Assembly (NCBI GenBank): GCA_049512075.1
Contig: JBEKXL010000021.1
Span: 1 to 42,527, forward strand
Direction: 5' to 3'
DNA length: 42,527 nucleotides
Source: Candidatus Bathyarchaeia archaeon
Lineage (GTDB): Archaea; Thermoproteota; Bathyarchaeia; Bathyarchaeales; Bathycorpusculaceae
Notes under the pieces: generated by a model
Databases searched by the model: none
What the model was told of the DNA's origin: nothing
The model's input: the letters and a program-made list of their open reading frames with translations, nothing else
Program-made: the position numbers and the translations under genes
Shown: piece after piece, positions 1-40,902 of the stretch
Numbering within the stretch: position 1 is the first letter of the stretch
Layout of the letters: every line of letters starts with the position of its first letter

Positions 1-762
1 CAACGTTTGCTGAGACCGTGCCACTTTCTTTCTTTTTTCCATCTTTTCTGTCTCTATCATATGGAGTAGGGTCATAACAGATAACCTTCACAAAACGCAA
101 TTCCTCATATTACGCGTCAGAATTTGAGCGATTAGATCATTAGTCCGCAATTATACAATTACCAAGTGTGTGTAGAATAAACGTTTCGGCATGATAGCGC
201 GCGCTAAGATGCTTGTCGCTGTAGGGCTACAATCACAGGGTACTGTTAAGTCAAGTTAACCCAAAATCTTTGTGATGACCCTTGAATCTTTCTGTTAAGG
301 AAAATATTATTTGGTTAAAGGACTTGTGCTAGTTATAGCGCGTGCGCTATTAGCAATCCTCCACTCCCAAGCACGCACTCTCCATTTATCCCTTCCACTC
401 CACTCACTAACATCAAAGTTCCTTGTGCACAAGTTTTATCTCACACCATTTATGAGGTACTGTTAAGCTACCCAAAAAAGCCTTTGCTATGAAGGAACAC
501 TGTCGTGACATAGCAAGCCGTCACAAAGCGCGCGCGCTAAGGTGCTTATGAGGAAGTAGCGAGGGCTCGCAATCAAGACGGAATAGAGATTACTTTGCGA
601 ACCGTCCAAGAACTAATAGATGGAAAAATACAGGACACGCAAAAAACCTAAGGGGAAGAAAGCAGGTAACTTAAGCGCGCGCGCGCAGTATCTGTCGAAA
701 GGGTACTGGTGCGTTATTGGACATGACTCTTTTTATTTTTTTGTTTATGATGAGAGATTCCA

Positions 763-1029
763 CTAAACAGGTTTAAATGTTGACTCTTTCTGTTTAGCCA
801 TTAGTTCTTTAGGGATGTCGACGGCCCTGACAACATTTTGAGCGTTTATCATATAGACAGGCGATCCATCAGGACCATGCTTCTTAAGTCTCTTGACTCC
901 AACAAGAACTAATTTTATCTTAAGAGTCGTCCCATCCTTAAGCTTATAGACATTCCAATGCTCTTCTTTTTCTTCGAAGTCAATATCATCACCTGAAGCT
1001 ATGTCCTCAGGTGTTATCGGACTAGGCAT
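763..1029 (-). CDS. Small hypothetical protein (beta-rich; EEHWNVYKLKDGT...DGSPVY)
   Basis: ORF 763..1056; ATG at 1029 preferred (GGAGA upstream). Protein-like composition; function not recognised. Confidence 0.75.
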   Translation of the reverse strand: MPSPITPEDIASGDDIDFEEKEEHWNVYKLKDGTTLKIKLVLVGVKRLKKHGPDGSPVYMINAQNVVRAVDIPKELMAKQKESTFKPV

Positions 1030-1292
1030 AGCCAACTGCTCACATCTCCATATCAATATGAGAGAGTTGCCATTTTAAAGGCTTTCATAACAGGGTTCTG
1101 TTACTGTTAACAGTCGACTGGTAGTGAGAATCAGTCCTATGAAGTTCTATAGAGGGATCAGAATATAGAGTTGGCGATAGATAAGTTGGCAAATTCTTAG
1201 GTCTCTAGACTTAAGACATTGATACCTAGAGAATAGATTAAAAGCGCGTGGGTCGCATAGCTCGGGGAGTGTGGTAGCGCGCGCATTTGAAA

Positions 1293-1520
1293 TCACTCCA
1301 TCTTAACTTTAAGAATCCATTTTCCTTTAGGATTACCGTCTAAATCGACTCCTATGCCCTTTAACACTTTAAATTCGCCCTGTTTCAAACCTAAATTTTG
1401 CATGGCGAATTCTGTTGCTTCTTTAAGCGTACAGAATCCAGCTGGTTTCTTTGCCTCGGTCTCTGTAAATCCCCATCCTGGGGGAACTAAACTGCTTATT
1501 TGCAAAACTTTTAATCTCAT
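1293..1520 (-). CDS. Small hypothetical protein, possibly virus/MGE derived
   Basis: 75-aa ORF with a GAGGAGG Shine-Dalgarno upstream; AT-rich; stop lies 8 bp from a (GC)4 motif. Confidence 0.6.
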   Translation of the reverse strand: MRLKVLQISSLVPPGWGFTETEAKKPAGFCTLKEATEFAMQNLGLKQGEFKVLKGIGVDLDGNPKGKWILKVKME

Positions 1521-1775
1521 TCTTCTTTTGCCTCCTCAAGGGAAATAACAGAATAGTCTATGAATCGGCAGTCTCGTCACTTCATGTCTTCGCTCCAGCT
1601 ATTATAGAATGGAAATCGCTGTTAAAGCTTGCTTATCTCTTTAAGAAATCTCCTTCAAGCCAATTTTATGTATCAGAGAAAAATAGGGAATGCGCGGGAA
1701 GCTTCTATACACTGGCAACATAAGACTTTTTAAAGGGCATATAAGCGTCCGCTACCCTATAAGAAGCGGTGTTTA

Positions 1776-2336
1776 ATGCCGAAGACTAAAGCCATAATAC
1801 ACATTCAAAACGTCGTTGCCACTGCCACTCTCAACCAAAGAGTTGACCTGAACGCAGTTGTGAAGAGTTATCCAGGTGTCGAGTATCGACCGGAACAGTT
1901 TCCCGGACTAGTATTTAGGCTTAAGAGACCGAAGACAGCCACGCTGATTTTCAACTCTGGAAAAATGGTTTGCACAGGAGCGAAATCGGAAAAGGAATCC
2001 CGCAGAGCTGTTATGACGGTTGTTAAGGAACTGAAGAAGGGCGGGATAATCATCATCGGCAAGCCGGACTTGAAGGTTGTGAACATGGTTGCTTCTGCAA
2101 GCTTGGGCGGAAGGGTAGAGTTGGAACTGGCAGTGGGTGCGCTTGGAAAAACGATGTATGAGCCGGAGCAGTTTCCAGGGTTGATCTACAGGATGGACGA
2201 GCCTAAAGTGGTTATACTCGTATTCGCAAGCGGGAACCTTGTTTGCACAGGAGCTAAGAAAGAACAGGACGTTTATGACGCCGTGCACAAGCTTCATGAA
2301 AGATTGGAGGAACAAAACCTCATATTCTACGAATAA
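1776..2336 (+). CDS. tbp: TATA-box-binding protein
   Basis: Two TBP repeats: NVVAT..YRPEQFPGLVFR..LIFNSGKMVCTGAKS and NMVAS..YEPEQFPGLIYR..LVFASGNLVCTGAK. TATA-like TTTTTAAA near 1726. Confidence 0.98.
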   Translation: MPKTKAIIHIQNVVATATLNQRVDLNAVVKSYPGVEYRPEQFPGLVFRLKRPKTATLIFNSGKMVCTGAKSEKESRRAVMTVVKELKKGGIIIIGKPDLKVVNMVASASLGGRVELELAVGALGKTMYEPEQFPGLIYRMDEPKVVILVFASGNLVCTGAKKEQDVYDAVHKLHERLEEQNLIFYE

Positions 2337-2462
2337 AAGCTTCATACGTTAATCGCCTAGCGCGCGCAGGGTGTCTTTCGCAAGCTCTCGCTGAAATTGT
2401 TGTTGGACTGTTTCATGTCTGCCAGCCCAGGATTTTGATGGTTTTTCCGAGGCTTCGTACGC

Positions 2463-5039
2463 TCAAATACCGCTTTCATATTTCGCCAGGGCGGCTATTT
2501 CGACGGGGACCACTTTTCTGTATACGCACTCTGGTATTCTCATCACACCATCAACCTTCAAAAGGTCTTCAATTTGTATGCCGAACAACTTTTCGTTTTC
2601 TTTCAGCAACGGCAAGATTTTTTCCCAGTCTTCTTTGGAAATTGTGTTTATTTTGCCGCCGTTAAGCTGGTCTTCACCGACTGTCTCTCTAGGGTCTCTC
2701 AAGTATACAGCGCTGGCTGCTGCGAGAGGGAACAGGTTTCCTCCGGGATAGGGGGTTTCTTGCTCTACCATTTTTCCGTGGTCATCAAATGCTACTCCGT
2801 TAAGAATTGTAAACCCTCTCGCTGCCATGCAGGATTCACCCATGTAATCTTTGCACGAACCGTTGACAACCGCTGTTGCGCTTCCGACGGAATTTATCAA
2901 CGGCCTGTCGATCAAATCCCCCAAAATGAACGTCACTCCGCCCTTGGCCCCGTACTCAAATGCTTTTCCCGCGTCTCCGAAGACTACCAGTTTTCCTGAT
3001 CTGAAGCAATAAGCCACAGAGTCCTGGGCGCTTTCGTGCACATAGAATTCGGGGCCGTCTGCAAACGCCGCGAGGCAGTCGCCGACTCTTCCATAGACGT
3101 CGATTCTGACTCTGTCTCTTGCAATCAGACCAGCTCCGAAGTTTCTCTGCCCTCTGAAGTTGTAGGCGACAAAGTTCTTCCAACCCAGTTTGCAGGCCCT
3201 TTCAAGTAGCTGGCATGTGCCTTCCCCTCCCTCCGGGGGGAATTCGGAAACGTCCATTACGAGGGTCTGATTTGAGTGTGCTGGGCCTTTCAGTCTGTTT
3301 TTTTCTTCGAATTTGATTAAACGATATTTTCCGTTTGTATCGGATTCTGTGGAGCTTGTTGAATTGAAAACGTCAAAGAGTTTTTCTTCAAATAGGGAGA
3401 CGATGTCACTTCTTCTCTTCCTGCCAGTGTCGTATCTTCTGTCTATGAGCAGGGTAAGCGTCTCCACGACGACAGACTTCTCTTCGTCACTTTTGCCGGC
3501 GTATTCCCTCATTGTTTCTGCAAATGAACATACCTCGCCAAAACTCCAGCCTTCAATGTTCTTCGCAGTATATGCGAATAGGTCGACGCCTCTCGGTCTG
3601 TCTTTCAGTTTTTCGTCAATGCTTGGAAATCTAGGCATATCATGACTGCTTATCCTCTTGCAATGTTGCTGGTGGTTTGTGGCCGAGATGGGTTTCCCAA
3701 ACTTGTCCGTGCATAGAAGGTTCTTCGATTCGTCAATAGTGAAGACAAAGGCGCCGCCGTCGGTGTAGCTGCCTCCTCTGGCATACCAGTACAGGTCATT
3801 CATTGGATAGAATCTTGAATCATCCTTCGCTAGGTTCTGTACCATCGTGTCTATTGCCTGTTTCTCGGAAGCTATGAAACCTATTTTAGCCTCTCCTTCT
3901 TGGAGGGAAAAGACTTGTGGCCTCAGCATCGAAGTGTCGGTTATTCCGATTAGCTGAAACTCTCTCCTGTACGGATTGTTTCGGGCAATGATGAAGAACC
4001 AGGGTCCATCGGGGGAGCAATGGATGTGTGTTGCTTGGATTGCCTTATAGATCTTCTTCTTGTCTTCTGGAAGCATGGCGAAATCTCTTTCCGTCGTTGG
4101 GGCAATTGCTTCGATCGCGTATTCCAGCGGGTACTCATATGTTCGCGTCAAAAGATCCCAGTATAGGGCAGCGACCTCTGTGTCCGTTAGGAATAAGGGG
4201 GAGATGTTTCTTTGCCTCAGATATTCTGTTATAGAATGATAATTTGCAAAATCGCCATTGTGGACTAAAGCATCGTGCAGGCCTATGAACGGGTGTGAAC
4301 CTCCGGGGTGCCAGATTTTTCCTTTCGTAGGATATCTTTGATGTCCAATCCAAATGTGGGATTCAAGGTCTTCGAGCTGATAGTAGTGTAGAACTTGCTC
4401 AGCGTATCCTACGATCTTGAAAACGATGATGTTTTTTCCGTGAGATGTAACGAAGGCTTTTTTGTCGCCCAGAGAGGCATAATACTTCTTGTTTAGAGCA
4501 AAACTGTTTCTGTAAATGAACTCGTCCTCAGCGGTTTCTGGTTTGAGCCCTTCGTATCCATTCTTTTCAATAAACTGTCGAAGTTTGTCTTCTTTCGCCC
4601 TTACGAAATATCTCCAAACCTCTGGAGGTTTGACTTCCAGACCTATGCTTCTGTGGTTCTCAATCGTCGCGGTTTTTTCCGCAAGCTCAACGTTGAGGTT
4701 GGAGTTTATGAATTGAGATTCAACTTCCACTCTTGATTTCGGATCAATGTAGGCTACCTGCATTATGTAGTCTTCTTCCAAGACTCTCTCTGAAACGCCC
4801 AGTTGCTTTGCAGAGAGACCGACAGCCGCGATGCCGCCGCCTTTTCCATTTCCCCTGTTGTGCATCTGGATAAGCGGTTGTAGCAAGTATCTTCCTTGTA
4901 TTGGGATGGAGCTAGCTATTCCAAGAACGCCGCATCCGCCTTCCGCCACGTTTTCACGGATCGAGCTGTTAGCGCCGGTGGTAACAGGATGTTTGTCTGA
5001 AACCAGTGGACTGCAAGTGTTCCTGTTCATAGTTGTCAC
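2463..5039 (-). CDS. Glutamate synthase subunit: class II glutamine amidotransferase (GltB1) fused to GXGXG beta-helix (GltB3)
   Basis: Propeptide followed by EGG/CGVLG Ntn cysteine; HNRG, GHQRYPT, HPF, VHNGDFAN, TDTE motifs; C-terminal GXGXG repeats (GDCLAAF, GKLVVFGDAG, YMGE). Confidence 0.88.
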   Translation of the reverse strand: MTTMNRNTCSPLVSDKHPVTTGANSSIRENVAEGGCGVLGIASSIPIQGRYLLQPLIQMHNRGNGKGGGIAAVGLSAKQLGVSERVLEEDYIMQVAYIDPKSRVEVESQFINSNLNVELAEKTATIENHRSIGLEVKPPEVWRYFVRAKEDKLRQFIEKNGYEGLKPETAEDEFIYRNSFALNKKYYASLGDKKAFVTSHGKNIIVFKIVGYAEQVLHYYQLEDLESHIWIGHQRYPTKGKIWHPGGSHPFIGLHDALVHNGDFANYHSITEYLRQRNISPLFLTDTEVAALYWDLLTRTYEYPLEYAIEAIAPTTERDFAMLPEDKKKIYKAIQATHIHCSPDGPWFFIIARNNPYRREFQLIGITDTSMLRPQVFSLQEGEAKIGFIASEKQAIDTMVQNLAKDDSRFYPMNDLYWYARGGSYTDGGAFVFTIDESKNLLCTDKFGKPISATNHQQHCKRISSHDMPRFPSIDEKLKDRPRGVDLFAYTAKNIEGWSFGEVCSFAETMREYAGKSDEEKSVVVETLTLLIDRRYDTGRKRRSDIVSLFEEKLFDVFNSTSSTESDTNGKYRLIKFEEKNRLKGPAHSNQTLVMDVSEFPPEGGEGTCQLLERACKLGWKNFVAYNFRGQRNFGAGLIARDRVRIDVYGRVGDCLAAFADGPEFYVHESAQDSVAYCFRSGKLVVFGDAGKAFEYGAKGGVTFILGDLIDRPLINSVGSATAVVNGSCKDYMGESCMAARGFTILNGVAFDDHGKMVEQETPYPGGNLFPLAAASAVYLRDPRETVGEDQLNGGKINTISKEDWEKILPLLKENEKLFGIQIEDLLKVDGVMRIPECVYRKVVPVEIAALAKYESGI

Positions 5040-9461: not shown

Positions 9462-9812
9462 ACGCGGTCACTCCTGCGACTCAGAATTTGCACCGTTATG
9501 GAAATCCGCTATTTTAGTTTTGCGCGCTAAATACGATGTTTCCAATAGAAGACAAATCCCGTGCACTCTTTAATCGCTTTGAGTCCGTACGCCCCCCGCT
9601 GCGCGCGCTTATGCGGAATGTACGGCTTTGCATGGAAAACTGTAACAAAATGTGTAACAATTCTGTCACTTTCCATATTTTCAGTCAGTTCTCAAAAAGA
9701 CAATTAACGCAGCATCAATTTTTAGGTGCTAATGGAAGAATCCTCTGGTCTTTTCTCAGTTTCAGTTTCTGCATAGAGTGTTTTCAGAAAAAGTGAAGCT
9801 GGTTATCATGAG

Positions 9813-10518: not shown

Positions 10519-10551
10519 GTATCCATACAAGTAATTGGTGTGGGAAAGAAT

Positions 10552-11250: not shown

Positions 11251-11413
11251 GCGAAAGCCCTGAGCAAGGACGTCAAAAGCCTCCTCAGAATCGACAGAAA
11301 ATTCAAGAGCCATGGACCTCAACAGCTCAGACGAGCCTACAGAAGGCGCGTGGCAGTCGAACGAGTGTTCAACGACTCAAGAACCTCACGGGCTTAACCC
11401 AACACAACCTGAG
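11251..11413 (+). pseudogene. C-terminal fragment of a DDE transposase (IS4/IS5/IS1182-like Y(2)R(3)E(6)K motif)
   Basis: Translates to ...GPQQLRRAYRRRVAVERVF, then after a 1-nt frameshift at ~11371 RLKNLTGLTQHNL; ends abruptly at the GCGCGCGC motif. Confidence 0.7.
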
Positions 11414-11534
11414 CGCGCGCGGTTTTTTTCTCCATTGTTGCAAGTGTCTTTGCGCGCCCTCAGCTCATAAAATTGCGATACCACTCCTTCGGTGATCGTT
11501 TTTCAGAAACCCATGACATGGATGAAATGGTTGG

Positions 11535-16463: not shown

Positions 16464-16986
16464 CTGACATCCAGAACCGCAAATCACGTCCAATCGTCAT
16501 TCCAGCTCGCATCATGCCAGACAAGCCTAATCAGCGTGATTCCCAGCCAGTCTCGGTCAATGCCCGCTAAGCGTAGCGCTCAAACAGGCACCGCAGCATC
16601 AACCTTCACACTCGTCCATTCCCCGCTGTTCCTTCCCAAAGCAACATTACGGCTGACGCAAAGAAAAAAGAAGGAGGGCATCGGACAACATAACATTGCA
16701 ATTTTACAGTAACGAGACCACGAGTATTAATATTTAGCTTAGTCATGGAGACCGCAAGACTTCGCCTTTCGTTGAAAGCGCGCGCGCTAATTTCAATGGA
16801 GCTTTTTTTATCTAGTTGGTTAACTCGTTTTCTTGTGCTTTTTCGCCTTATCTCGCACTTCACAGAAGACAGCGAAAACAAGAGAGGGTCTACATAGGCG
16901 CAAAAATTTTTTTCGGATTTTGAGCAAAGTCATAGAGATTTAAGTTTTCTCTTCGTAAGATTCTTTCAGCTTCACTAAGGCTTTTT

Positions 16987-18299: not shown

Positions 18300-18646
18300 T
18301 TGCCTTTTTCACGCTCCTAATCTCAATAATCATACTCAAGGGTGCTGTTTAAGTTCTGTTACCTTCGTCACGTGTATTCTAGAGTGGGTTTTTCTGCTCT
18401 GCACTTTCGATGTGCTTCACGAACCTTCCGTCTTTCTTCTGCACGAATACACGAGCTTATTTTCCATTTTCTCACGCAAGTATTGTAGAGTCATATCTTA
18501 CGTAGCTCGCGCGCGCTAAATGCGGGAGGGACACAACAATGCAACATTACAATGCCACATTACCCTGAGGTTTGTTACCATCAACATCACATCTGGCGTT
18601 ACAACTGAACAGTAGAAAGTAAACCCTACCTACAATCCCTGACTCA

Positions 18647-20289: not shown

Positions 20290-20787
20290 TTATGTGCCTT
20301 TGGCATCCGCGCGAAGTTTGACGCCAACGGTTTTTGCAAGTCGTTGCAGATCGTCATCACTCATCCATTCAGTCCTGAGATACTCACAGATTCTGTCATC
20401 ACCCATTCCCAACCTCCTGGCCTCCTTAACCGCGTGGCGATAAGCCTCAACCTCAGTAGGCCTCTCAATGTAAGCGTAGTCACTGTCAAACAGTTCTTTT
20501 CCCTCCATAAACTGTCTAACGTGAACCAACTCGTGGATAATGTCGAGATAAATGTCAACAATGTTGCCCTCATTCAGATACCGCGCGCCTATTATGAGGT
20601 GCCCGTCCATCTCGCTCACTCCCATATACCCCCTTATCCCCGCGAACTCGACCATAAGGCCGCTCAGCACCTTCTCTGTCTCTTCACCAAAAACCTCTCT
20701 GACCGCAGCAACACTTTCAAAACCCTTGAAATACCCCGTGAAGCGATGCATTGCAATCTTGACGTCGCGTGGAATCTTGACTTTCAA
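20290..20787 (-). CDS. Small HExxH zincin-like protein
   Basis: IIHELVHVRQ ... RPTEVEAY. Confidence 0.75.
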   Translation of the reverse strand: MKVKIPRDVKIAMHRFTGYFKGFESVAAVREVFGEETEKVLSGLMVEFAGIRGYMGVSEMDGHLIIGARYLNEGNIVDIYLDIIHELVHVRQFMEGKELFDSDYAYIERPTEVEAYRHAVKEARRLGMGDDRICEYLRTEWMSDDDLQRLAKTVGVKLRADAKGT

Positions 20788-23130: not shown

Positions 23131-23348
23131 GAACTTGGACATTATCGAGTCCCGATCTCTAAGCGGTTCGGGCGGCAGAGTGTTAACAAGGGTGACGCGT
23201 GATGCGCGCTCTGACGGATTGAAAGAAAAGTATTGATGAGCCAGCAAGTCGTGATGAACGGTGTGTTAGTTGTATTGAATGTTTTTATAACGCGCGCTAA
23301 GAGCAACGTTTTTAAGAAGCAAAAGAAGAATTTTGACGGTTGATTTTC

Positions 23349-27454: not shown

Positions 27455-27742
27455 ATGGCGGAAAATCAGAAGACTGTTTTCATTGGCAGGAAACCAGCAA
27501 TGAGCTACGTACTGGCGATCATCACAAGCCTCTCAGCAAGCAACTCTAAGGAAATAACCTTGAAGGCGCGCGGGCAAGCTATAACGACAGCTGTTGACGT
27601 TGCTGAAATCACGAGAAGCCGGTTCTTGAAAGACCTGAAAGTTAGCAAGATCGCCATAGGAACGGAGCAGATGCCACCTCGAGAAGGAGAAAACAGTGCA
27701 CGAATGGTTTCTACAATGGAAATAACACTGGCGAAAGAGTAG
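27455..27742 (+). CDS. albA: DNA/RNA-binding protein Alba
   Basis: VFIGRKP.MSYVLA, TLKARGQAITTAVDVAE, VSTMEI; AGGAGTGA Shine-Dalgarno. Confidence 0.95.
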   Translation: MAENQKTVFIGRKPAMSYVLAIITSLSASNSKEITLKARGQAITTAVDVAEITRSRFLKDLKVSKIAIGTEQMPPREGENSARMVSTMEITLAKE

Positions 27743-29077: not shown

Positions 29078-29302
29078 GTGCATATCTCCGTTAAACAATA
29101 ATTTTGATATTCTGCTTATAACCTTTCTCGGAACTTGCACAGCGTGTTTGCCCTTGCACTGAAGGGCGCGCGCTATTAAGAATTAGGCTTTCTTTGCCAT
29201 GTTGTGCATCATTCTTCTAAATCTAAGATAATTCCTAATCTCTTTGTCTTCTTTTCCAAACCTGTACACGATTCTGGGAGCAGGCTTCTCTATTTCAAGG
29301 GT

Positions 29303-29830: not shown

Positions 29831-29998
29831 TACTTTCCTTCCAATCCTGAGACAACTACTTTCTTTAATGCCTGCATAAGAGCATACTTCACTAAAGGCA
29901 GATTCTTCAATCGCCTACCTTCAACCGTAAGAGCACGATAGAGCAACTCAATTTGTAATGTGCAGTGCACGTTCTCTGTCCGTAGCGCGCGGGTGGTC

Positions 29999-30448: not shown

Positions 30449-30654
30449 GATGAACAGCCTCTCCAGTGAGTCAGACTTCTCGATATTTAACAGTTTTCAA
30501 GCTCAAGTTATGGCCTCGCGCGTCCCATGTCCGGACATGTCCTTCTCCGCGAGCATCAGCCCTCAAACGAGACCCATCATGGCGAGGCGGTGGTTCTTCA
30601 TCCATACTGGGCGGAAGAGGCGCGCGCAAATGTTCTGTCCTACGCGTTTCCAGA

Positions 30655-33303
30655 TCATTCGATCCGATAGTTTTCTTTTCCATTCTTAGCGGTTCTAGGT
30701 ATCGTTATCGTGAATTGCGCGCCCTTTCCCGACTCGCCCGTTTCCTCAATTCTCCAGCCGTAGACGTCCATCAACGTTTTTATCAAGAAAAGCCCGTAAC
30801 CTGAGCCTCTGCCCGTTGAAAAGCCTTCCCTGAACAAGTTCGGTCGGACATTCTGCGGTATGCCTACGCCATCGTCCTGATAGACAATCCTCAGCCCATC
30901 TTCCCCGACTTGCTGGCGGAAGATTCTGATCTGAGAGACTTTGCAACCGTACTTCAACGAGTTGTCAACAAGGTTATAGAACATCTGTCTCAAAAGGGAA
31001 TCAGCCAAAACATTCAGACCCTGACACTCGTTTGACACCTTGGCTCCTTTCAAGTCCGAGAAGAGTGAAACAGCTTTCTGAACAGCTTCGTGCACATCCG
31101 TGTAGGTCAACTCTTCAACACCCAACAATTCATAGTTCCTCGCAAAATCGAGGATTCTCACGATTTGTCCACACGCTGACTCCATATCCTTGAAGCTCTC
31201 GAGAAGCTCTGGATTATCCCTTGTCCACTTCTTTTCCAGGAAGATGTTGCCGGTGATTACGGAAAGCTTGTTTCGAATGTCATGCCTCGTCAACCCGCCA
31301 ACAACCTGCAGTTTTTCGTTCATTGTCGCCAGTTTTTGCATCATCTCCTTCATGGCTGCTTCTGTTCTCTTCAACTCAGAAATGTCCTTGTACACGCCCA
31401 CGTACCCAACGACTGTGCCTTCAAATTTCATAGGGGCAGCAGACACGGCTACTGGAACCAAAGCCCCATCTTTCCTTCTTCTTACCGTATTGTGGTAAAC
31501 GTACCCGTCTGAAGCTTTCCTGTCCAACGTTTCAGCTTCTTCCATCTTATCCATCTGCACAATCAAATCAACAAGGTGTTTTCCCTTGATTTCTGCGAGA
31601 GAATATCCGAAAAGCTCCTCAAACCGCGGGTTAATGTCCAAAATGGAGAAGTCCGATCCGAGGTAAACAGCAGCTTCAGGGTTGCCCATAAACAAGCTCT
31701 CGAACTTCTTCTGACTAGTGTAGGCACGATTTTCTGCTTTTTTGCGTTCAGTTATGTTTCGAACGATATCCACGAATCCTATTGGCTCGCCTTGTTCTCC
31801 TTTTATGAATCCTGTGGTTATCTCTACTGGAATTTCGGTACCATTCTTTGTGAGGGCCCTGTACTCTATTGTTTTGCCCTGTCCCGTTTTCATGGATTCC
31901 ATCGAGTCTTGTAGTGCCCGCGCTCGGTCGCCTTCAACCAAAAAGTCAAGCACGTTCTTTCCTATCAGGTCGCTTTTGTCGGCGCTGCCAAACATTCTGA
32001 GTAGAGCTTCATTTACGTCGGCAATGTTCCCGTTCAAGTCACCTGTAACGATGCCGTCCAGAGAAGCTCTGATTGCAGCAGAAAACCGACGTGATTCTTG
32101 TTCCGCCTTCTTGCGTTCTGTGACTTCATGGAATACCGTAGCAAACTTTCCCCTAGATGGAGAAAAGACAGATATTTGGAACTGCTTGTTCATTGGTGGG
32201 AAAAACGTCTCAAATGAAGCAGGTTCTCCGGAAGCAGCCACTCTTGCGTAGATTCCTAGATAAGGCGGCTCGCCTGCTCCATAAAGCGCTGAGGCTTTGC
32301 TTCCAATAGCTTCTTCTCTCTTGATCCCAGTGAGCGATTCAAAAGCTGGGTTAACATCCAGAATAATGTAATCAACTGCCCCGCCGCCTGCTCCATCATA
32401 TACAATCTCATGGAGACAAAACCCTTCGCTCATTGAAGAATACAAAGAATGATATTTCTTCTCACTCTCCATCAGTGTGTTTTCTGCTTTCTTGCGTTCT
32501 GAGACGTCCCTTATTATGTTTACAAAGCCAACAGGGTTGCCCCTGGAATCATTTAGAATGCTCCCGGATAGTTCTGCCACGTATGTTTCTCCATTCATCT
32601 TCAAAGCAGTGTACTCAACGTTTTTCATTGTTCCCTGTTCAGACATTTTTCTCAGGTTCTCTAAGGCTTTGCTGCGGTCTTTTTCTGCCAAGAATTCAAT
32701 GGCGTTCTTGCCAATAACGCAGCGTGCAGATGAATATCCTCCCAGCTCCAGAGCCGCTTCATTGCAATCGATGACATTTCCATTCAAGTCATTGATCATT
32801 ATTCCATCTGGAGAGGAAACGAATATGGCCCTCAGTCTCTCCTTCTCTCGCCAAACGTCCATTTCTGCCCTTTTACTTTCCACGACGGCACGTAAGTCTT
32901 TAGCTAATTCGCAGTAGACTGATTCCGAGTCGCCAGCTTTGTTGAGATATCGGTCAGCTCCAAGGTTCAGAGCTTTGATGGCAACTTCTTCTTTGCCCTT
33001 CCCAGTGAACACGATAAACGGGATAGCATTGCCTCCCTGCCGCAGTTCCTTCAGAAACTCAAGCCCGTCTTTTCCGGGCATCCGATAGTCTGAAACGATT
33101 GCATCATAACTCCCCTTCCCCAGCTTCCCTAATGCTTCCTCCACAGACTCTGCAGTGTCAACTTGGAAAGGGCCTTGCATCTCCAAACATTGCTTCGCAA
33201 CCCTCAACAAGGAAGGCTCATCGTCAACATGCAAGATATGCAACTTTGCTTTCTCAGCAGAATCCACGACTATCTCAACTGGAGACTGAACAGACTCAAC
33301 CAT
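30655..33303 (-). CDS. Hybrid sensor kinase: REC - 4x PAS - HisKA - HATPase
   Basis: ILHVDDE..SDYRMPGKDG..YLNK; four PAS/PAC repeats; TRHDIRNKL; NLVDNSLKY, DDGVG, GYGL. Confidence 0.95.
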   Translation of the reverse strand: MVESVQSPVEIVVDSAEKAKLHILHVDDEPSLLRVAKQCLEMQGPFQVDTAESVEEALGKLGKGSYDAIVSDYRMPGKDGLEFLKELRQGGNAIPFIVFTGKGKEEVAIKALNLGADRYLNKAGDSESVYCELAKDLRAVVESKRAEMDVWREKERLRAIFVSSPDGIMINDLNGNVIDCNEAALELGGYSSARCVIGKNAIEFLAEKDRSKALENLRKMSEQGTMKNVEYTALKMNGETYVAELSGSILNDSRGNPVGFVNIIRDVSERKKAENTLMESEKKYHSLYSSMSEGFCLHEIVYDGAGGGAVDYIILDVNPAFESLTGIKREEAIGSKASALYGAGEPPYLGIYARVAASGEPASFETFFPPMNKQFQISVFSPSRGKFATVFHEVTERKKAEQESRRFSAAIRASLDGIVTGDLNGNIADVNEALLRMFGSADKSDLIGKNVLDFLVEGDRARALQDSMESMKTGQGKTIEYRALTKNGTEIPVEITTGFIKGEQGEPIGFVDIVRNITERKKAENRAYTSQKKFESLFMGNPEAAVYLGSDFSILDINPRFEELFGYSLAEIKGKHLVDLIVQMDKMEEAETLDRKASDGYVYHNTVRRRKDGALVPVAVSAAPMKFEGTVVGYVGVYKDISELKRTEAAMKEMMQKLATMNEKLQVVGGLTRHDIRNKLSVITGNIFLEKKWTRDNPELLESFKDMESACGQIVRILDFARNYELLGVEELTYTDVHEAVQKAVSLFSDLKGAKVSNECQGLNVLADSLLRQMFYNLVDNSLKYGCKVSQIRIFRQQVGEDGLRIVYQDDGVGIPQNVRPNLFREGFSTGRGSGYGLFLIKTLMDVYGWRIEETGESGKGAQFTITIPRTAKNGKENYRIE

Positions 33304-33789: not shown

Positions 33790-33889
33790 CACTGTTCACG
33801 AAACAGAGTGCTCATATGAAAACGTTCCGCTCTTCCCTCAATCGAAATAACAGAACGATTAACCTCTATCAACGTTAATAATACATGGA

Positions 33890-34241
33890 GTGGATATACA
33901 GTTGAGATACTTGGAAAACGGAGCATCCCGAGAAGACAACCCGCTTCACCCCTCAACGATTAGCCCGCGAGCTTTTTAGCGTTGATGGAAACGGGCTTGC
34001 GAGGAGAAGAGCACGTTCTTTGAATGGTAGATTTCATCGGCACCGAGGGAGAAAGGAAAATGGGAAAATCCTCGGTTGCCTTGTCTACCATCAAATTAGG
34101 AGTTGCAGAGTGCAATTTATGTTTTTCGCAATCAATACAACTTCTTGGGATTCGCTGACGTTGAGCAGGGACCAGTCTGAATCGGATGAAAACAGAAAGG
34201 CACACGCAGGGGTAAGAGCCCGAGCTTTACCGTGAATCCAC
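33890..34241 (+). ncRNA. Putative large structured non-coding RNA (~350 nt), family unrecognised
   Basis: 5'/3' closing stem plus at least 8 compatible helices; G-U pairs favour the + strand; no credible ORF; TATA-like element about 30 nt upstream. Confidence 0.65.
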
Positions 34242-34266
34242 ATTGGCGCGCGCGGCGCGGCTCTGG

Positions 34267-35199: not shown

Positions 35200-35281
35200 C
35201 GCAAGCGAACATTATGACTACAAACACTCATAAGATTAACCTAGGACCTTGCTTCCACTGTCGTGACGTGAAAGAAAAAGT

Positions 35282-36322: not shown

Positions 36323-36402
36323 CACTTTTCACCCTAGAAACGGCCAAGCTATAAGTTTAAGTCTTGCCCCAAAACAGATAATCTCCACGTAACCTGGCAG
36401 AG

Positions 36403-37170: not shown

Positions 37171-37267
37171 AATACAGACGGCAAACCGGCAGAGCTCATG
37201 ACAAAGTTATTTAGGCTCCAGGCAAACCAGATAAGTTCATATTGCTGAGTTAAGAAGGTGAAAAACA

Positions 37268-37597
37268 TTGGAGGCAAAGACGCCTAAAGAGTTTTTTGAG
37301 AAGGTTCTTCCAACCAAGTTCAAACCGGACAAAGCTGAAGGTTTTGATGCGGTCGCTCAGGTAAACTTGGCCGGCGCCAACGGTGGCAACTGGATCATAA
37401 CAGTAAAAAACCATAAAATCGACACAAAAGAAGGAGTTGCCGCCAACCCTGACATCACGCTCAAGATGGCAGACACGGACTTCGTAGCTCTGGTCAACGG
37501 AAAACTCAACGCCGTCACAGCCTTCATGACCGGAAAACTCGAATTCAACGGAAGCATGGCCACTGGCCTAAAACTGCTAGACATGGGCTTCATGTAG
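37268..37597 (+). CDS. SCP2 sterol/lipid-binding domain protein
   Basis: GGNW.I, PDITL.M...DFVALVNGKLN.VTAFMTGKL...G. Confidence 0.9.
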   Translation: MEAKTPKEFFEKVLPTKFKPDKAEGFDAVAQVNLAGANGGNWIITVKNHKIDTKEGVAANPDITLKMADTDFVALVNGKLNAVTAFMTGKLEFNGSMATGLKLLDMGFM

Positions 37598-37690
37598 CCT
37601 AGCAGAAGAAAAAAGCGCCTTCCTAATCATCTAGATCAGAATTATCAACAAGACAAGGATCTTTAACGCCGAACATCCTATCTCACAAAG

Positions 37691-38413
37691 CTAAACCTTC
37701 GATGCTCTTCCAGACTCCGGGCTAGCATCCGGCCTGTACGTGAGTTTGAGCCTACTGATGAACGTGACACAAGATAGAATCAGAAATGGAGATGCGAAAA
37801 TGGCCGAAACGAAAGGGAAAATGGAGAAGAAGGAATACATGTTTGAGAAAAGTGCAAAGCTGTATCCAACGATAAAGGCAAGGATTCCCCACAAAGCGGA
37901 GATTCTTCCGCGCCTGAGATTCAGACCGAACTTTTTCTCCAACTGCCCGACATTGTGACCCTCAACAACCGTATAGATTCCCCACAATGCCAGTTGAACC
38001 AGAAAAACTACGCCTAAAGCGATGTCTGAGGAGAACGAACTCCAAAATCCGACAATGGGCGACAACAGTCAGCCCAACGGAGAAACGGCCAAGAGAACCG
38101 CACAAAGCCACATAATCGTTTCTGTTTGCCCGAAACCCAAGAGCCTCCAACCGCTCGCCCGATAATAAATGCCAAGAAAATACACGGCTGGCAGAGCAAC
38201 AAACAAGAACCCCAGTCCCAAGAAGACCAATCCCAAAGGGCTCAACGCGAACAGGACAACCGAGACTATCGAAAACGTAAAGCCAAGCCTCAGCTTCCCA
38301 AACCCTTCCGATGTCCGAGACTCAACGGCCGACGCTTCGCTTCTTTCATGTTGGCCTTCCACAGCATCCACCCACAATAGCCTGCAGCCAACACGCACAG
38401 ATAACTCCTCCAT
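37691..38413 (-). pseudogene. Multi-pass membrane protein interrupted by an in-frame TGA at 38069-38071
   Basis: ORFs 38069..38413 and 37691..38065 are in the same frame (..SPLG*LLSPIVGFW..). Confidence 0.7.
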
Positions 38414-39089
38414 CCTTGACCAAAACTAAACCCCAGGTCAACAACTTTTGACAACAACACATAAGCCTTTGCACCCGCTAAAACTACAGACTACTCCTTC
38501 CTAGCCCCTCCCCGCAGCGTGCACCGAGAGCAAACAAGCTTAAACACTAGCGCGCTAAGTTAGACTAGTTCAGCTTCAAGGTCCCAGCCTTCCTACGTTC
38601 AGCACGTAGCCCTATGTTTCTGTTTTTGACATACTAGCATTATCGCAATTTCGTTTATATCGCGTCCTAGGCTAACTCTTCTTGGGGCTTAGGGATGAAG
38701 AGAAGGAGAAGGCTGTCACGAGAGGATTTCCTAAAGACACTGGACGTAATCATGCAGGACGGCCCAAACGTAGAATACAGAAACCCAGAGAAATGGAGAA
38801 ACCCTCAACATAACGCTTAACATAGCGGCGCTATGCAACAAAGAACCCTGGCTTCTTACACTCAAAAGTCTAGCCTACATTGAGCTTTCGAGTGCTGTCT
38901 GTCCGAAAGCTCGTTTATTCAACAGATAACAGAAAAGCTGAGGAAGATTGCGTTCTCACGTATTTTGCGTGGCCCGCGGGCTAAAAATGAATAATGCCTC
39001 TCTGCTCTTCCTCATACTATATTACAGAAAATCAGTCTGCAACATCGCCTTCCTGCGTATCGGCGCGCTGTTACAATCTCAACTTTGAG

Positions 39090-39144
39090 ACCTCTTAGAC
39101 CAATGTTGAGAGCAACATCATTTGTTACAAACGACTTAGCGCGC
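39090..39144. repeat. 55-bp dispersed direct repeat, copy 1, ending in TTAGCGCGC
   Basis: Ungapped match to 40848-40902, 43/55 identical by hand count. Confidence 0.85.
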
Positions 39145-39464
39145 TAGTCGGGAGCACATTGATTGCATAGTCCAGAGTTCTCTAAATATTCTTCCTCAGG
39201 GATTTCCTTGTCACATTGGATGCAATGATACTTTTCTTCCTCTTCCTCTTCTGATTCTGGTTCTTGTACTTTGGCTTCAATAGTGGCAGAAGTTAGAGGA
39301 TAATACCACTCTTTGATTGTGGTAGAGTCCTCAGTTGCTCCCGCAAAGCCTTCTTGGAGAAGATGATGTATGGAAGTATCCAAGTTTCCTATTTCCTCTG
39401 GGGTCAGAGTCAAGGCATCGTATATCTCATGGTTCTTTTTACATTCTTTCAGGTTACATTTCAT
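39144..39464 (-). CDS. Small acidic hypothetical protein with a C-terminal Zn finger (virus-like)
   Basis: CIQC...CNQC; its TAG stop is part of a TAGCGCGCTA palindrome. Confidence 0.65.
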   Translation of the reverse strand: MKCNLKECKKNHEIYDALTLTPEEIGNLDTSIHHLLQEGFAGATEDSTTIKEWYYPLTSATIEAKVQEPESEEEEEEKYHCIQCDKEIPEEEYLENSGLCNQCAPD

Positions 39465-39696
39465 TCCTTTTCCTCTCCTGTGAATTCTGCTAGGATTTTC
39501 AAGTCCTCGATTGTTTTTTTCCTCTTCTCTCGCATTGAAATTTTTGAAGGTACTGCTGGAAAGTTCTGCTTCCTTATCTCTTCAGCTGCAAACCTACTGA
39601 TAGTTCTCGCAACTTGTCTAAGTTCCTCAGCTTAGCGCGCTCTGTTCCATCAGCTGCACTGCGAACACTTCATTCTGAGCTTAGCTTTAGACAGCA

Positions 39697-40050
39697 CTAG
39701 CGGTAATCGACGAACTGTTTCAAAGCCCGAAACAAATCTTCTTTAATGTCCTTGACTGCTCTGAGCATTCTCTCTTTCACATTGCTAGCGGAGGCATGGC
39801 TAATGCGCTTGCGGCCAATGTACATGCGAGATAGACACCTGAGCGTAGTCCATGGCGTCTTGGTTACAAGTATGGACGTCTTGAGCAAATGCATATCCCA
39901 AATCATCCCACACACAATTTTCGAGAGCTCGTAACGGAGAACCAATATCAATTCATTCGCGGTTTTGCTTCTCCGTCGTCTCCACAATTCTGCTAGCAGT
40001 CTTGTATTTTGTCCCCTGAGCGAGTAGGCAATGTTGGTTTGCATGCTCAA
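39697..40050 (-). CDS. Hypothetical protein
   Basis: 117-aa ORF filling a motif-bounded segment; TTATAA upstream. Confidence 0.45.
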   Translation of the reverse strand: MSMQTNIAYSLRGQNTRLLAELWRRRRSKTANELILVLRYELSKIVCGMIWDMHLLKTSILVTKTPWTTLRCLSRMYIGRKRISHASASNVKERMLRAVKDIKEDLFRALKQFVDYR

Positions 40051-40181
40051 TTAAACGATTCGGGTTATAAGAAGCTTGTTTAGCCGTAATATTTACTATT
40101 GATAAGCGCGCGCGAATCAGAAAGAGTAATGTAGATAGGAAACTTGAGGGAATGGCTAAAAAAAAGCGCCATCACCAAAAT

Positions 40182-40508
40182 CTAGTGTTTAGTCTGCTTT
40201 TGTTTCCTTGTCGATTGGCTAAGGTTTTGAATGATTTGTTGAAAGATTCCTCTTTCTTTGGTAAGGATTTCAACAAAATTTGCGAGTTCCTCCCTTTGAA
40301 AACGCAGGTTGTTTGTTTCTCCTTGAAGCTGCGAGATTCTTTGTTTAGACGCCTTAATCTCGTTTCTCAACTCTCTAGCCTCTTTTCGAAGCTTCTCCAT
40401 CTCACTAGTCAAGATTTTCATATACGCCTTTAACTCATTCACCTGCTTCTGCAACTCTTCATATCTGGACCTCCGAACTAGACCAAAAATCACGGAAGAT
40501 TCCTCCAA
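40182..40508 (-). CDS. Coiled-coil hypothetical protein
   Basis: Clear heptad pattern (YEELQKQVNELK..LRKEARELRNEIK); start uncertain. Confidence 0.65.
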   Translation of the reverse strand: MEESSVIFGLVRRSRYEELQKQVNELKAYMKILTSEMEKLRKEARELRNEIKASKQRISQLQGETNNLRFQREELANFVEILTKERGIFQQIIQNLSQSTRKQKQTKH

Positions 40509-40847
40509 CGAGTAGGCATGGCAGCGCTTACGAGATCTAATATTGAGAAATCGATTGTCGGTCGGTAGCGCGCGCGCTTACTGAATGAAGAACATTGCAC
40601 GAACAAAACCGATCTATCTGCCATCACCGTCATCTCCATGACTGATTGAAGTCTCTGACCAATCCGTTATTAAAGGATTTTTCAGAATTAGAGCGCGCGC
40701 GTTTTACGACGCTACATACGCAATTCCAAAAAAACCACGAACTTGAGAAAGGTTTCTTCGACATTCTTGATAAATTCTTCCTCATGAGTAACCAAGAGTA
40801 TTATTCTGCAATGATAAGATAGGGCTTTCCCGATTTGAGTTTTGGCA

Positions 40848-40902
40848 ACCTCTTCAAGCAATGTTGAACAGAATATCAAATGTTACAAATGATTTAGCGC
40901 GC
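40848..40902. repeat. 55-bp dispersed direct repeat, copy 2
   Basis: Matches 39090-39144. Confidence 0.85.

Follow-up and report, generated by a model that had tools for sequence, protein, structure and literature searches.

Short alternating-GC runs in the intergenic DNA of a Bathyarchaeia archaeon as possible scars of DNA breakage and joining

Short runs of alternating G and C are enriched in the intergenic DNA of a Candidatus Bathyarchaeia archaeon and are spread patchily beyond its genus; they lie at joints of homology between sister genomes, have arisen de novo at several sites and lack extra conservation. With confidence just short of even, we read them as the residue (scars or fillers) of a patchily distributed, undescribed DNA break-and-join process rather than as a gene-expression signal, the tract presumably being added during the joining step. 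The window, i.e., the whole stretch of DNA analyzed, comprises 42,527 nt of contig JBEKXL010000021.1, and the genome to which it belongs is designated G000 in the comparisons. The observation made in an earlier note on this DNA, a highly iterated intergenic palindrome, was confirmed and its interpretation was partly supported.

Abundance, Placement and Length of the Runs

The window contains 28 alternating-GC runs of 6–12 nt, namely 24 intergenic runs, one on a stop codon (39139) and three in coding sequence (20582, 27566, 30717), matching all 28 sites listed in the earlier note and the three that it had placed in genes. GCGCGC occurs in 48 copies vs. 8.0 ± 2.6 (maximum 16) in 100 dinucleotide-preserving shuffles, and the expected number of runs was 2.13 ± 1.53 (maximum 9) in 500 first-order Markov simulations based on the intergenic DNA of the window. 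Run density is 2.68 per kb in intergenic DNA (9,344 bp) vs. 0.09 per kb in genic DNA (33,183 bp), a split that depends on home-made gene calls supplemented with Pfam.

The proposed genome-wide character of the element was borne out by the 1227 runs of G000, where GCGCGCGC is the most over-represented 8-mer (1292 copies on both strands vs. 89 expected under a third-order Markov model; 1032 vs. 11.7 in intergenic DNA under a first-order model). The proposed intergenic bias likewise holds genome-wide (1.54 runs per kb vs. 0.175 per kb in genes, about 9-fold). Runs occupy about a quarter of intergenic regions and are found in divergent (1.36 per kb), tandem (1.62 per kb) and convergent (2.01 per kb) spacers, with the same spread over these types in G107, a run-rich single-contig genome of 1.98 Mb related to G007. 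No fixed position or distance relative to gene starts or stops was found in G000 or G107; a stop is no more than 20 nt away for 129 of 789 runs, and a start for 37 of 749. Run flanks are unique in 2288 of 2448 cases in G000.

That most copies are flanked by TA is an overstatement: among the 25 non-CDS runs of the window (24 intergenic and the stop-straddling one), TA borders at least one side in 15 and both sides in only 3, and genome-wide both sides carry it in 33 of 822 runs. It was found on 21% of run sides genome-wide, about 4-fold over the 5% background, and the enrichment of TA flanks ranges from 4- to 8-fold.

Window runs measure 6 nt (9 runs), 7 nt (4), 8 nt (6), 9 nt (5), 10 nt (3) and 12 nt (1). 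Genome-wide the lengths form a cliff with a sharp stop at 10 nt ((GC)3 680, (GC)4 451, (GC)5 93, (GC)6 3), and a G follows (GC)5 on 1% of sides vs. 24–26% for shorter runs. The counts for lengths 6 to 10 are flat in G107 (32, 26, 28, 26, 25) and drop beyond that to 5, 3, 1 and 2, while other dinucleotide repeats drop about 10-fold per unit. The cliff fits a unit of bounded size.

We hold it highly improbable that a methyltransferase, together with biased mismatch repair, drives the runs as a HIP1-like palindrome, that they result from ordinary slippage at dinucleotides, or that they are artefacts of assembly. HIP1 and the alternate HIPs are, according to PMC4390886, likewise GC-rich palindromes that track cognate methyltransferases, and the earlier note had suggested a methylation-linked mark of this kind. 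Genes, however, contain almost no runs, in contrast to HIP1, and a repair bias is unable to make insertions. C5 methyltransferases (PF00145) were not found in G000 or the run-rich genomes of its genus, with a single sub-threshold match in G002 and G030 among 31 genomes, and no N4/N6 methyltransferase (PF01555) was found in G107. Slippage, which the earlier note had also raised, is in line with orthologous runs that differ by one or two GC units but has a minor effect, since it predicts a long-run tail and hypervariable length, whereas the cliff was seen and 25 orthologous runs had identical lengths vs. 9 changed. Chimera junctions of assembly or library origin are contradicted by the same sites in separately assembled genomes, by the tracts in the single-contig genome and by the recovery of at least 97% of sampled words of window positions 33000–42527 in 5 runs of 5 studies, 4 of which are possibly the source.

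Runs at Joints of Homology

Among the intergenic ends of G002–G000 homology blocks, 87 of 332 fall within 3 nt of a run vs. 2.06% when 20,000 intergenic positions were drawn at random (odds ratio 16.9). Both flanks are collinear in G000 for 30 of 165 intergenic G002 runs vs. 296 of 600 random intergenic sites, and by our reading of the list a run borders 21 of the 34 listed G002–G000 indels or replacements on at least one side. Segments were inserted, lost or inverted at runs between sister genomes, which upholds the suggested tie to recombination or insertion, and copies of a 200-bp repeat are truncated at varying internal points with a run at each cut.

The runs might have come first, as fragile or recombinogenic sites (through a non-B structure, or as palindromic microhomology of 6–10 bp at ~1200 places) with joints forming at existing copies, in which case their initial making would be a separate matter. 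We regard this as somewhat unlikely; it is compatible with the break-and-join explanation as a second step. It would account for alleles with run, segment and run facing a single run, as in event 31 (429 bp) and at the (GC)5 run at 528..537, which is single in the window and in G002 is replaced by a run, ~1.4 kb and a run. It would equally suit events 2, 13, 23, 26 and 28, where the run is common to both genomes and the difference is confined to one flank, and the (GC)4 run at the block joint 197..204, whose left flank continues without a run in G004 and which in G002 is fused, together with its right flank, to the right flank of run 2360 in inverted orientation, an inversion-type joint.

The 7-nt run at 23291..23297 marks a deletion joint, this genome reading tttttataa-CGCGCGC-ta-agagcaacg. 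Its counterparts in G002 (950 bp) and G004 (7.8 kb) both go on from tttttataa with c(c)agttgacca on the left and have ctca gagcaacg on the right. The run may derive from GCGCGC-taag retained inside the G002 segment and its novelty is ambiguous, so that this site, outwardly the most convincing case of the window, can also be read, against the break-and-join reading, as a deletion that ended at a pre-existing run.

Several alleles speak against runs being the starting point. The segment with the TBP gene has a (GC)4 run at both homology ends in G000 (left joint 1277..1284, right joint 2360..2367) and none in G001 or G004: homology to these begins at the edge of the left run, with 0 and 2 unaligned nt, respectively, and homology to G001 stops 1 nt from the right run, at which a 9.9-kb block common to G002 begins. 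In events 3, 7 and 10 a run stands on both sides of one genome's variant segment, whereas the other genome's variant is without runs. In favor of pre-existing runs, Z-DNA-forming repeats are reported in PMC6957503 to provoke breakage and deletions in cells of yeast and humans. The present tracts stop at 10 bp, however, and 6–10 bp is short for Z-DNA. The gyrase A subunit, which would supply negative supercoils, was found in none of the 40 genomes searched, whether run-rich or run-poor, and Z-DNA as the working form, which the earlier note had brought up, is doubtful. Single-strand hairpins of the runs have little stability (-1.4 to -4.2 kcal/mol) and do not surpass those of shuffles, and the origin of 1200 runs would be left unexplained.

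De Novo Origin and Conservation

A run at G000 C13:24739-24746 occupies the joint of a derived deletion of ~780 bp, while G002 and G004 retain the segment intact and run-free in and beside it, contrary to what pre-existing runs would require. Bare insertions relative to the sister genome comprise GCGCGCGC, AGCGAGCGCGC, (G)AGCGCGCGC(G) and TAGCGCGCGC, and the (GC)6 run at 675..686, the only 12-nt run of the window, faces acttaGCagtatc at the equivalent place in G002, which points to a bare insertion or expansion of ~11 nt. G002 has (GC)5 where G000 and G004 have gagc. One insertion is accompanied by a 10-bp direct duplication and looks more like integration than filling-in. Polarity was assignable for only a handful of events.

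We consider it very unlikely that the run is a selected cis element, whether a DNA-uptake signal or a site bound by a nucleoid protein, an insulator protein or a terminator protein. High copy number, the palindrome, weakly conserved TA shoulders, intergenic restriction, the presence in so many spacers and the mild excess near stops and in convergent spacers would suit such an element. Against it, all spacer types carry runs at no set distance from starts or stops, and column identity is 0.940 and 0.915 in orthologous runs vs. 0.905 and 0.912 in their 25-nt flanks, conservation thus being no better than in the flanks; the nucleoid-protein site of the earlier note finds no support here. Indels distinguish 11 of 50 alignable orthologous run sites at a flank divergence of ~9%, the majority of runs lie in DNA absent even from the 95%-identical sister, the runs are patchy at the species level, and de novo runs exactly at joints need a mutational source regardless.

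Proposed Process and Taxonomic Spread

In the break-and-join explanation, an alternating G/C block of at most 10 nt, often led by A or TA, would be added to the chromosome at sites of homology-independent joining. It would appear as a bare insertion of 8–11 nt, at the joint of a deletion, or at both joints of a replaced or moved segment. Selection would purge the copies that land in genes, and the remainder would accumulate between genes, reaching the highest density where genes are few and rearrangement is fast, as at the two ends of the window, and drifting like neutral DNA once written. Since one short palindrome recurs in every copy, the runs probably go on to provide microhomology for further deletions and inversions and would then be new breakpoints as well as scars. 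Counting against this explanation, no counterpart could be aligned for 87 of 145 runs from four syntenic sets, and simple filling-in does not account for the enrichment of TA flanks.

Genomes loaded with runs (at least 40 copies of TAGCGCGCGC) number 18 of 301 in the class, G107 among them, and belong to 5 families, so that the trait is wider than the genus of G000. Copy numbers of TAGCGCGCGC diverge widely even among members of one genus, as in g104 (150 vs. 0–11). The process would accordingly be active in the genus of G000 and patchily in at least 4 other families, and the patchy spread fits an activity gained and lost.

Elements with GCGCGC Tips

An IS5/IS1182-like element at G000 C32:7469-8577 (DDE_Tnp_1 plus DUF772) and ~30 MITE pairs of 109–292 bp share the ends TA-GCGCGC-WKGCNTGTYCC, with TA outside 53 of 89 IS/MITE ends. 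The runs could thus be excision footprints of a cut-and-paste transposon with GCGCGC inverted-repeat tips that inserts at TA, its leftover tips annealing in different registers or being filled in to give 6, 8 or 10 nt, and IS-mediated rearrangement giving the joints. Two 5-nt tips would set a hard limit of 10 nt, and the full Ku-LigD operon of G000 could seal excision gaps. Close homologs of the transposase (72% identity or more) occur in all five genomes of the genus, and the nine panel genomes with the tip pattern are all run-rich. We nevertheless judge this origin quite unlikely. At least 10 run-rich genomes showed no such tip pattern (G107, G115, G142, G234, G317, G104, G172, G261, G207, G018), and in the 440 kb of G107 searched, 22% of the genome, no run-tipped element of any family was found and all 296 run flanks were unique, none resembling another. 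Solo runs bear TA on 16–32% of sides vs. 60% at MITE ends, in G107 runs of odd length (7 and 9 nt) match those of even length in frequency, and G000 has ~1100 solo runs vs. ~45 elements. The simpler reading is that the IS5-like family has its sequence in common with the runs or lives on them, and is not their maker.

Searches for a Responsible Protein

No enzyme was found for the break-and-join process. No link to RAYT, reverse transcriptase, PolX or protelomerase was found, and a z-alpha search gave no match, its control being silent too. Nor was a link found to Ku and the LigD primase-polymerase, which occur in G000 but in only 7 of the genomes searched, run-poor G010 among them, and were not found in run-rich G107, G018 and G003.

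Further Sites in the Window

Both imperfect variants mentioned in the earlier note are present. TA-GCGCGTGCGC-TA at 336..349 is a decayed tract equal to (GC)5 with one transition, and intergenic DNA has a 3.7-fold excess of transition variants such as GCGTGCGC (88 vs. 23.7); the other, TA-GCGGCGC-TA, lies at 38823..38833.

The three coding runs are background. The 7-nt run at 20582..20588 in a GNAT acetyltransferase gene is identical in all five genomes of the genus and stands outside the process. Relatives have GCACGCG at the 7-nt run of the Alba gene (27566..27572), which indicates origin by point change, and a (GC)3 lies in a PAS histidine-kinase gene (30717..30722).

In the middle of the window, the (GC)3 run at 9522..9527 is common to G002 and G003, whose homology stops ~35 nt past it in the latter. 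G002 differs by one base at the (GC)4 run at 9601..9608 (ACGCGCGC), is identical at the 9-nt run at 11413..11421, which ends a repeat matching 11263-11410, and at the (GC)3 run at 11452..11457, and has GCGTGC at the (GC)3 run at 23204..23209. The (GC)5 run at 16778..16787 falls within 16546-18511, which 673 other bases replace in G002; a 9-nt run occupies the block joint at 18508..18516, where G002 has GCGCGC with another left flank and a shared 4.8-kb block begins at 18511. Synteny with G003 and G004 stops at ~29145, by the (GC)4 run at 29166..29173, and an IS200 element follows. Flanks of the 7-nt run at 29985..29991 were not found in the syntenic stretches of four relatives, and another intergenic (GC)4 run lies at 30620..30627.

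Towards the right end, the 9-nt run at 34246..34254 begins 13 nt past the cofD stop, and G004 has only its right flank, without a preceding run. TA-(GC)3-TA is found at 38550..38555 and, on the stop codon of ORF 39144-39464, at 39139..39144; the left flank of the latter occurs in G004 in one copy with a run and in another with GGCCGC. A (GC)3 run marks the edge of a repeat copy at 39063..39068, and its right-flank copies in G004 adjoin other DNA and no run. The scan further gave a (GC)3 run at 39635..39640, 9-nt runs at 40106..40114 and 40693..40701, TA-(GC)5-T at 40568..40577 and, at the edge of a 'cattacaa' repeat copy, a (GC)3 run at 40897..40902.

Occurrence of Alternating-GC Runs in the Window and the Source Genome

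Runs were defined as maximal alternating G/C stretches of at least 6 nt. The window contains 28 of them, and every run coordinate listed in the earlier note was recovered. GCGCGC occurs 48 times in the window, compared with 8.0 ± 2.6 times in dinucleotide-preserving shuffles. Genes were called with a home-made dicodon scorer and checked against Pfam. These calls place 24 runs in intergenic DNA, one on a stop codon, and three in genes, the last being the same three that had been placed in coding sequence before, at 20582 (GNAT gene), 27566 (Alba gene), and 30717 (PAS kinase gene). The resulting run density is 2.68/kb in intergenic and 0.09/kb in genic DNA, and simulated intergenic DNA of the window held 2.1 ± 1.5 runs compared with the 24 observed. 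The two variant tracts pointed out earlier, (GC)5 with one transition at 336-349 and GCGGCGC at 38823-38833, are likewise present, each between TA dinucleotides. The earlier ascription of TA flanks to most copies is correct only in part: of the 25 non-CDS runs, 15 adjoin a TA on one side or both and 3 on both, and genome-wide TA adjoins 21% of run sides (background 5%). An Rfam scan of the window gave no match at the runs, the sole match being the 3′ end of a 23S rRNA at the contig edge (42179-42527, minus strand; RF02540, 320 bits).

The assembly of the source genome (G000; 2.73 Mb, 86 contigs) contains 1227 runs. The enrichment claimed from the window extends to the whole genome, where Markov models of first, third, and fifth order all ranked GCGCGCGC first among over-represented 8-mers, with 1292 copies compared with 89 expected and, in intergenic DNA, 1032 copies compared with 11.7 expected (first-order model). 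The claimed scarcity in coding sequence was also found genome-wide: 824 runs are intergenic (1.54/kb), 384 lie in called genes (0.175/kb), and 19 cross a gene edge, making runs about 9-fold rarer in genes than in intergenic DNA. About one quarter of the spacers contain a run.

By number of units, 680 runs are (GC)3, 451 (GC)4, 93 (GC)5, and 3 (GC)6; other dinucleotide repeats drop about 10-fold per unit. Since a G adjoins (GC)5 on only 1% of sides and shorter runs on 24-26% of sides, it is the whole alternating stretch that is capped, at 10 nt. The flank consensus is T at +1 and A at +2 with nothing further, TA flanks become more frequent with run length (16%, 20%, and 32%), and 2288 of 2448 run flanks are unlike any other flank.

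Taxonomic Distribution of Run-Rich Genomes

All five species of genus g1, to which the source genome and four congeners (G001-G004) belong, are run-rich, with 168-646 copies of GCGCGCGC, and most other genera of the same family hold 0-14 copies. The class was surveyed in 301 genomes using TAGCGCGCGC as query and a cut-off of at least 40 matches together with low controls. By this definition 18 of the 301 genomes are run-rich, and they are spread over five families. Run richness differs sharply even within single genera, and because run-rich and run-poor species thus coexist, the gene responsible should be findable by comparative genomics.

The run-rich genome G107 of the same class consists of one contig (1.98 Mb, 39% GC). 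In the 440 kb examined it has 148 runs, with a density of 1.32/kb in intergenic DNA and 0.083/kb in ORFs, no preference for a spacer type, and a unique sequence at each run flank. Lengths of 6-10 nt occur with equal frequency (32, 26, 28, 26, and 25 runs), longer runs are rare (5, 3, 1, and 2), and TA is found on 26-40% of run sides. Two further genomes of the class (G018 and G024) have the same pattern with fewer runs. As a conjecture, the flat length distribution, the cliff above 10 nt, and the rising share of TA flanks would be consistent with a unit close to TA(GC)5TA that is trimmed raggedly.

The tracts are not the artefact of one assembly, since they occur in several genomes including a single-contig one and orthologous intergenic runs are common to separately assembled genomes. 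Parts of window positions 33000-42527 were found in 24 public sequencing runs from 21 studies, none of them an RNA run. Five of these cover at least 97% of the sampled words of this segment, and four of the five are possibly the source.

Runs at the Boundaries of Homology Blocks

BLAST homology blocks between the window and the congeners begin or end at runs (197-537, 529-673, 1281-2358, 2358-12215, and from 18511 onward). For the closest sister species (G002) 800 kb were compared, which are about 95% identical to the source genome in synteny. In the source genome 87 of 332 intergenic block ends lie no more than 3 nt from a run, compared with 2.06% of intergenic positions chosen at random (odds ratio 16.9), and in the first 400 kb of G002 the block ends fall at a run in 58 of 240 and 62 of 260 cases, compared with 0.65% of random genome positions. 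Both 120-nt flanks were collinear in the source genome for 30 of 165 intergenic G002 runs compared with 296 of 600 random intergenic sites.

Among the collinear indel or replacement events listed between the two genomes, 21 of 34 have a run at a boundary by our own count; among the remainder are classical IS insertions showing target duplications (events 4, 8, and 9). The run-associated events are of several types. In some, one genome has a run where the other has a unique 280-1150-bp segment (events 15, 21, 22, 24, and 32), or a run-segment-run arrangement stands against a single run (event 31 and the window run at 528). In other cases a run is common to both genomes and one flank is replaced (events 2, 13, 23, 26, and 28), or runs enclose the variant segment in just one of the two genomes (events 3, 7, and 10). 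A joint of the inversion type involves the window runs at 197 and 2360, and copies of a 200-bp repeat end at differing internal points with a run at each cut. The segment at 1285-2359 has a run at each end in the window and is present without runs in G001 and G004.

This 1.1-kb segment carries a TATA-binding-protein (TBP) paralogue (1776-2336, plus strand; PF00352, E-value 2e-59). Many partial copies of the segment with 65-92% identity occur in all four congeners, and genus g1 seems to carry a multi-copy TBP family.

Origin and Fate of Runs

For rooting, three further genomes were used as outgroups, and few events could be rooted. Across four syntenic sets with 145 run sites, the flanks were collinear in no other genome at 87 sites, in one genome at 35, and in at least two at 23, most of the last being coding hexamers born by point change. 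Some runs are bare insertions relative to the sister genome, namely GCGCGCGC, AGCGAGCGCGC, (G)AGCGCGCGC(G), and TAGCGCGCGC, and the window run at 675 is one of about 11 nt. The insertions creating runs measure 8-11 nt and lack a target duplication except in one case, which is accompanied by a 10-bp duplication of a low-complexity flank. G002 has (GC)5 where the source genome and G004 have gagc. On contig C13 of the source genome (24739-24746) a run marks a deletion joint, the missing ~780 bp being present without a run in both G002 and G004. The deletion at 23291 of the window is derived, since G002 and G004 have both continuations in common; the run there, however, could descend from a GCGCGC-taag inside the lost segment, which G002 retains. 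The reverse arrangement is seen at 12215-13360, where G002 and G003 have a run and the source genome a 1.1-kb gene. At this place the window encodes a 360-aa HTH protein (DUF7347/ArsR-like; 12156-13241, minus strand) found only in the source genome, and G001 and G004 have neither gene nor run.

Some runs thus arose when and where the DNA was joined, and other joints used an existing run. The simplest account, to which we give a little less than an even chance, is that a mutational process would write a bounded alternating-GC block where DNA joins without homology, that selection would then remove blocks from genes, and that the remainder would decay neutrally. As the copies are identical palindromes, they should in turn favor subsequent deletions and inversions through microhomology, and the events at pre-existing runs would be accounted for in this way. 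The reverse order, in which runs come first and act as fragile sites, is a lesser but real possibility. The replaced flanks beside shared runs are consistent with it, as is the capacity of alternating CG repeats, the classic Z-DNA formers, to provoke breaks and deletions that is described in the available part of PMC6957503; it does not account for the origin of the runs and is partly complementary to the writing of blocks at joints.

At alignable intergenic sites the identity of run columns was 94.0% (G002-based) and 91.5% (G000-based), compared with 90.5% and 91.2% in the 25-nt flanks, and there is no sign of selection holding the run sequence. Per kb, divergent spacers contain 1.36 runs, tandem spacers 1.62, and convergent spacers 2.01, and runs lie slightly closer to stops than to starts, at no fixed distance. 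That the runs are a selected binding site is accordingly placed among the very doubtful readings. Transition variants of the run are enriched 2.5- to 3.7-fold, as expected of decaying copies. When 50 alignable G002 runs were compared with the source genome, 25 were identical, 9 differed in length, 5 carried point mutations, and 11 contained an indel. Dinucleotide slippage, which the earlier note offered as one possible cause of the variable unit number, is disfavored by the excess of identical over length-changed orthologs and by the fall from 93 to 3 copies between (GC)5 and (GC)6; a dinucleotide microsatellite would vary in length among close relatives and have a length distribution with a tail.

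Candidate Enzymes and Systems

A link to methylation, also suggested before, did not find support in the search for C5 methyltransferases (PF00145), a family that was not found in G000, G001, G003, and G004 and gave only a sub-threshold match in G002; across 31 relatives the matches were confined to G030 and, below threshold, G002. N4/N6 enzymes (PF01555) are present in the source genome, and a search in five genomes did not find them in the run-rich G107. Methylation drive, slippage, and artefact are, even jointly, left with very little probability.

The tracts alternate purine and pyrimidine by sequence, as a Z-DNA element does, yet they measure only 6-10 bp. A search for Z-alpha domains gave no match in five genomes, with control genomes equally silent, and gyrase A, which could supply the negative supercoiling that the Z form needs, was found in none of 40 genomes. 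Given the 10-bp limit and the lack of gyrase A matches, a Z-DNA mechanism appears less likely. The center of the telomere site of phages N15 and KO2 is TA-CGCGCG-TA, for which reason protelomerases (ResT/TelK) were searched for; none was found in five genomes. No reverse transcriptase was found in the source genome, and the distribution of PolX shows no match to run richness.

REP elements are imperfect hairpins of 20-40 nt with a conserved tetranucleotide head that accompany a flanked Y1 transposase gene. REP/BIME sequences with their RAYT (TnpA_REP) and REPINs resemble the tracts in being intergenic, palindromic, present in hundreds of copies, and located at rearrangement boundaries. Unlike these, the tracts form weak hairpins (4-bp stems, −1.4 to −4.2 kcal/mol, z-scores 0.2-0.6) and do not co-occur with Y1_Tnp (PF01797), which was detected in 6 of 36 panel genomes without a pattern and not in G107, G115, G142, and G234. 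By RAYT logic, genes with runs on both sides were counted (82 compared with 52 expected); inspected by eye, their paralog groups resemble surface, glycosyltransferase, membrane, and CBS proteins. The Y1 copy of the window belongs to an ordinary IS200 with its own hairpins. This IS200-type element spans 29290-29830, with the transposase at 29384-29803 and CCCCGGGG-type hairpins at approximately 29318-29336 and 29806-29826, and a 94%-identical copy exists in G001.

Contig C16 of the source genome (5124-8191) carries a complete bacterial-type NHEJ operon composed of a LigD primase-polymerase, Ku, and an ATP-ligase fused to a 3′-phosphoesterase domain, and the same set is present in G002, G004, G010, G207, G121, and G119. 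As a source of the runs Ku/LigD was rejected: among run-rich genomes it was found only in G000, G002, G004, G207, G121, and G119, it also occurs in the run-poor G010, and it was not found in the run-rich G107, G018, and G003. Known filler DNA at NHEJ junctions, like N and P nucleotides, is random or templated from nearby DNA. The tracts resemble such filler as extra nucleotides without a counterpart in either parent and as bare insertions without target duplication; they differ in always having the same alternating sequence and a bounded length, and Ku and LigD are not required.

A more specific form of block-writing, which we consider unlikely, is an end-joining route that would tail broken ends with a few alternating G/C, at most about 5 nt per end, through a new and patchily inherited polymerase or ligase activity unrelated to Ku/LigD. 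The tail being self-complementary, any two tailed ends could pair and be sealed, and a contribution of at most about 5 nt from each end would produce the hard limit of 10. If so, every illegitimate joint, be it a deletion, a captured fragment, or an inversion, would bear the same palindrome, and the ~1200 tracts would form a readable ledger of genome rearrangements.

An IS5-Like Element and Associated MITEs

Tc1/mariner and PIF/Harbinger, the latter being eukaryotic kin of IS5, are TA-targeting cut-and-paste transposons that leave excision footprints. The source genome has an IS5/IS1182-like element with DDE_Tnp_1 and DUF772 domains (contig C32, 7469-8577), whose inverted repeats read GCGCGC-TGSCTTGTCCC with TA outside. 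About 30 MITE pairs of 109-292 bp have the same ends, the consensus for element and MITEs being TA-GCGCGC-WKGCNTGTYCC. The hexamer forms the inverted-repeat tip and is no target duplication, since 81 of 108 core matches have GCGCGC without deviation, the two ends of a pair vary in length independently of each other, and the tip decays through point mutations. Empty sites of MITEs were sought in the sister genome, and none of the four pairs was informative.

All nine genomes with the tip pattern are run-rich, and the pattern search did not find it in at least 10 run-rich genomes. A parent element with matching ends is present in genus g1, and none was found in the 440 kb examined of G107. Because the IS5-like family is found only in run-rich genomes yet is missing from at least 10 of these, it is more likely a tenant of runs than their source. 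The runs themselves would, as transposon footprints, be short palindromic remnants between TAs, and a family with GCGCGC tips and TA flanks exists in genus g1. We nevertheless consider this reading quite improbable: many run-rich genomes show no such element, only a minority of solo runs have TA flanks, and the tracts join unrelated DNA and not only empty sites. The target-site duplication expected of a MITE, solo repeat, or footprint is not generally seen, with TA on both sides of 33 of 822 runs in the source genome.

Comparison With Iterated Palindromes

The nearest described class is that of the highly iterated palindromes (HIPs) of cyanobacteria, HIP1 (GCGATCGC) and its alternates, which in the available part of the source accompany a cognate methyltransferase and are thought to be born by biased repair of point mismatches (Elhai, 2015; PMC4390886). 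Both are short, GC-rich palindromes with hundreds to thousands of copies per genome, lineage-specific and lost or replaced between relatives. As in HIPs one fixed word, here GCGCGCGC, reaches high frequency, though the tracts vary from 6 to 10 nt. Unlike HIPs, which are present in coding DNA too, the tracts occur without a C5 methyltransferase having been found, are depleted in genes, and are born as insertions or at joints. The words GCGCGC, intergenic, and archaea are absent from that article (PMC4390886). From DNA uptake sequences (DUS/USS), which bias uptake by a competence machine, the tracts differ by their palindromic form, exclusion from genes, and insertion origin. Searches of the literature outside subscription journals found no archaeal paper in which tracts of alternating G and C are described as iterated elements of intergenic DNA.

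Alternating-GC words are generally suppressed across the prokaryotic genomes covered in the available part of PMC4060949. Here the opposite is seen, with such a word the most over-represented one in the source genome, and no other word in comparable excess in at least 18 genomes belonging to a single archaeal class. Should the tracts be written during re-joining of DNA, they would indicate an undescribed repair or recombination activity in uncultured archaea, and would provide a built-in cut-and-paste marker that helps to trace how these lineages gained and lost genes. If they are breakpoints instead, they would be a lineage-specific driver of genome shuffling.

Other Features of the Window

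The repeat of about 200 bp consists of ‘cattacaa’-like words and is present at 18582-18781 and 40917-41082, with ~39 matches in the source genome. Its copies are often truncated, many occur in all congeners, and TGTAATGT is itself among the top over-represented 8-mers. Two further short dispersed repeats lie at 17624-17686 (~60 bp) and 16637-16678 (42 bp), the latter with more than 15 copies in G003. A conserved nitrogen-assimilation cluster at 2463-9461 (minus strand) comprises three split glutamate-synthase-type genes and glutamine synthetase; it is free of runs and 95% identical to G002 over 9.9 kb.
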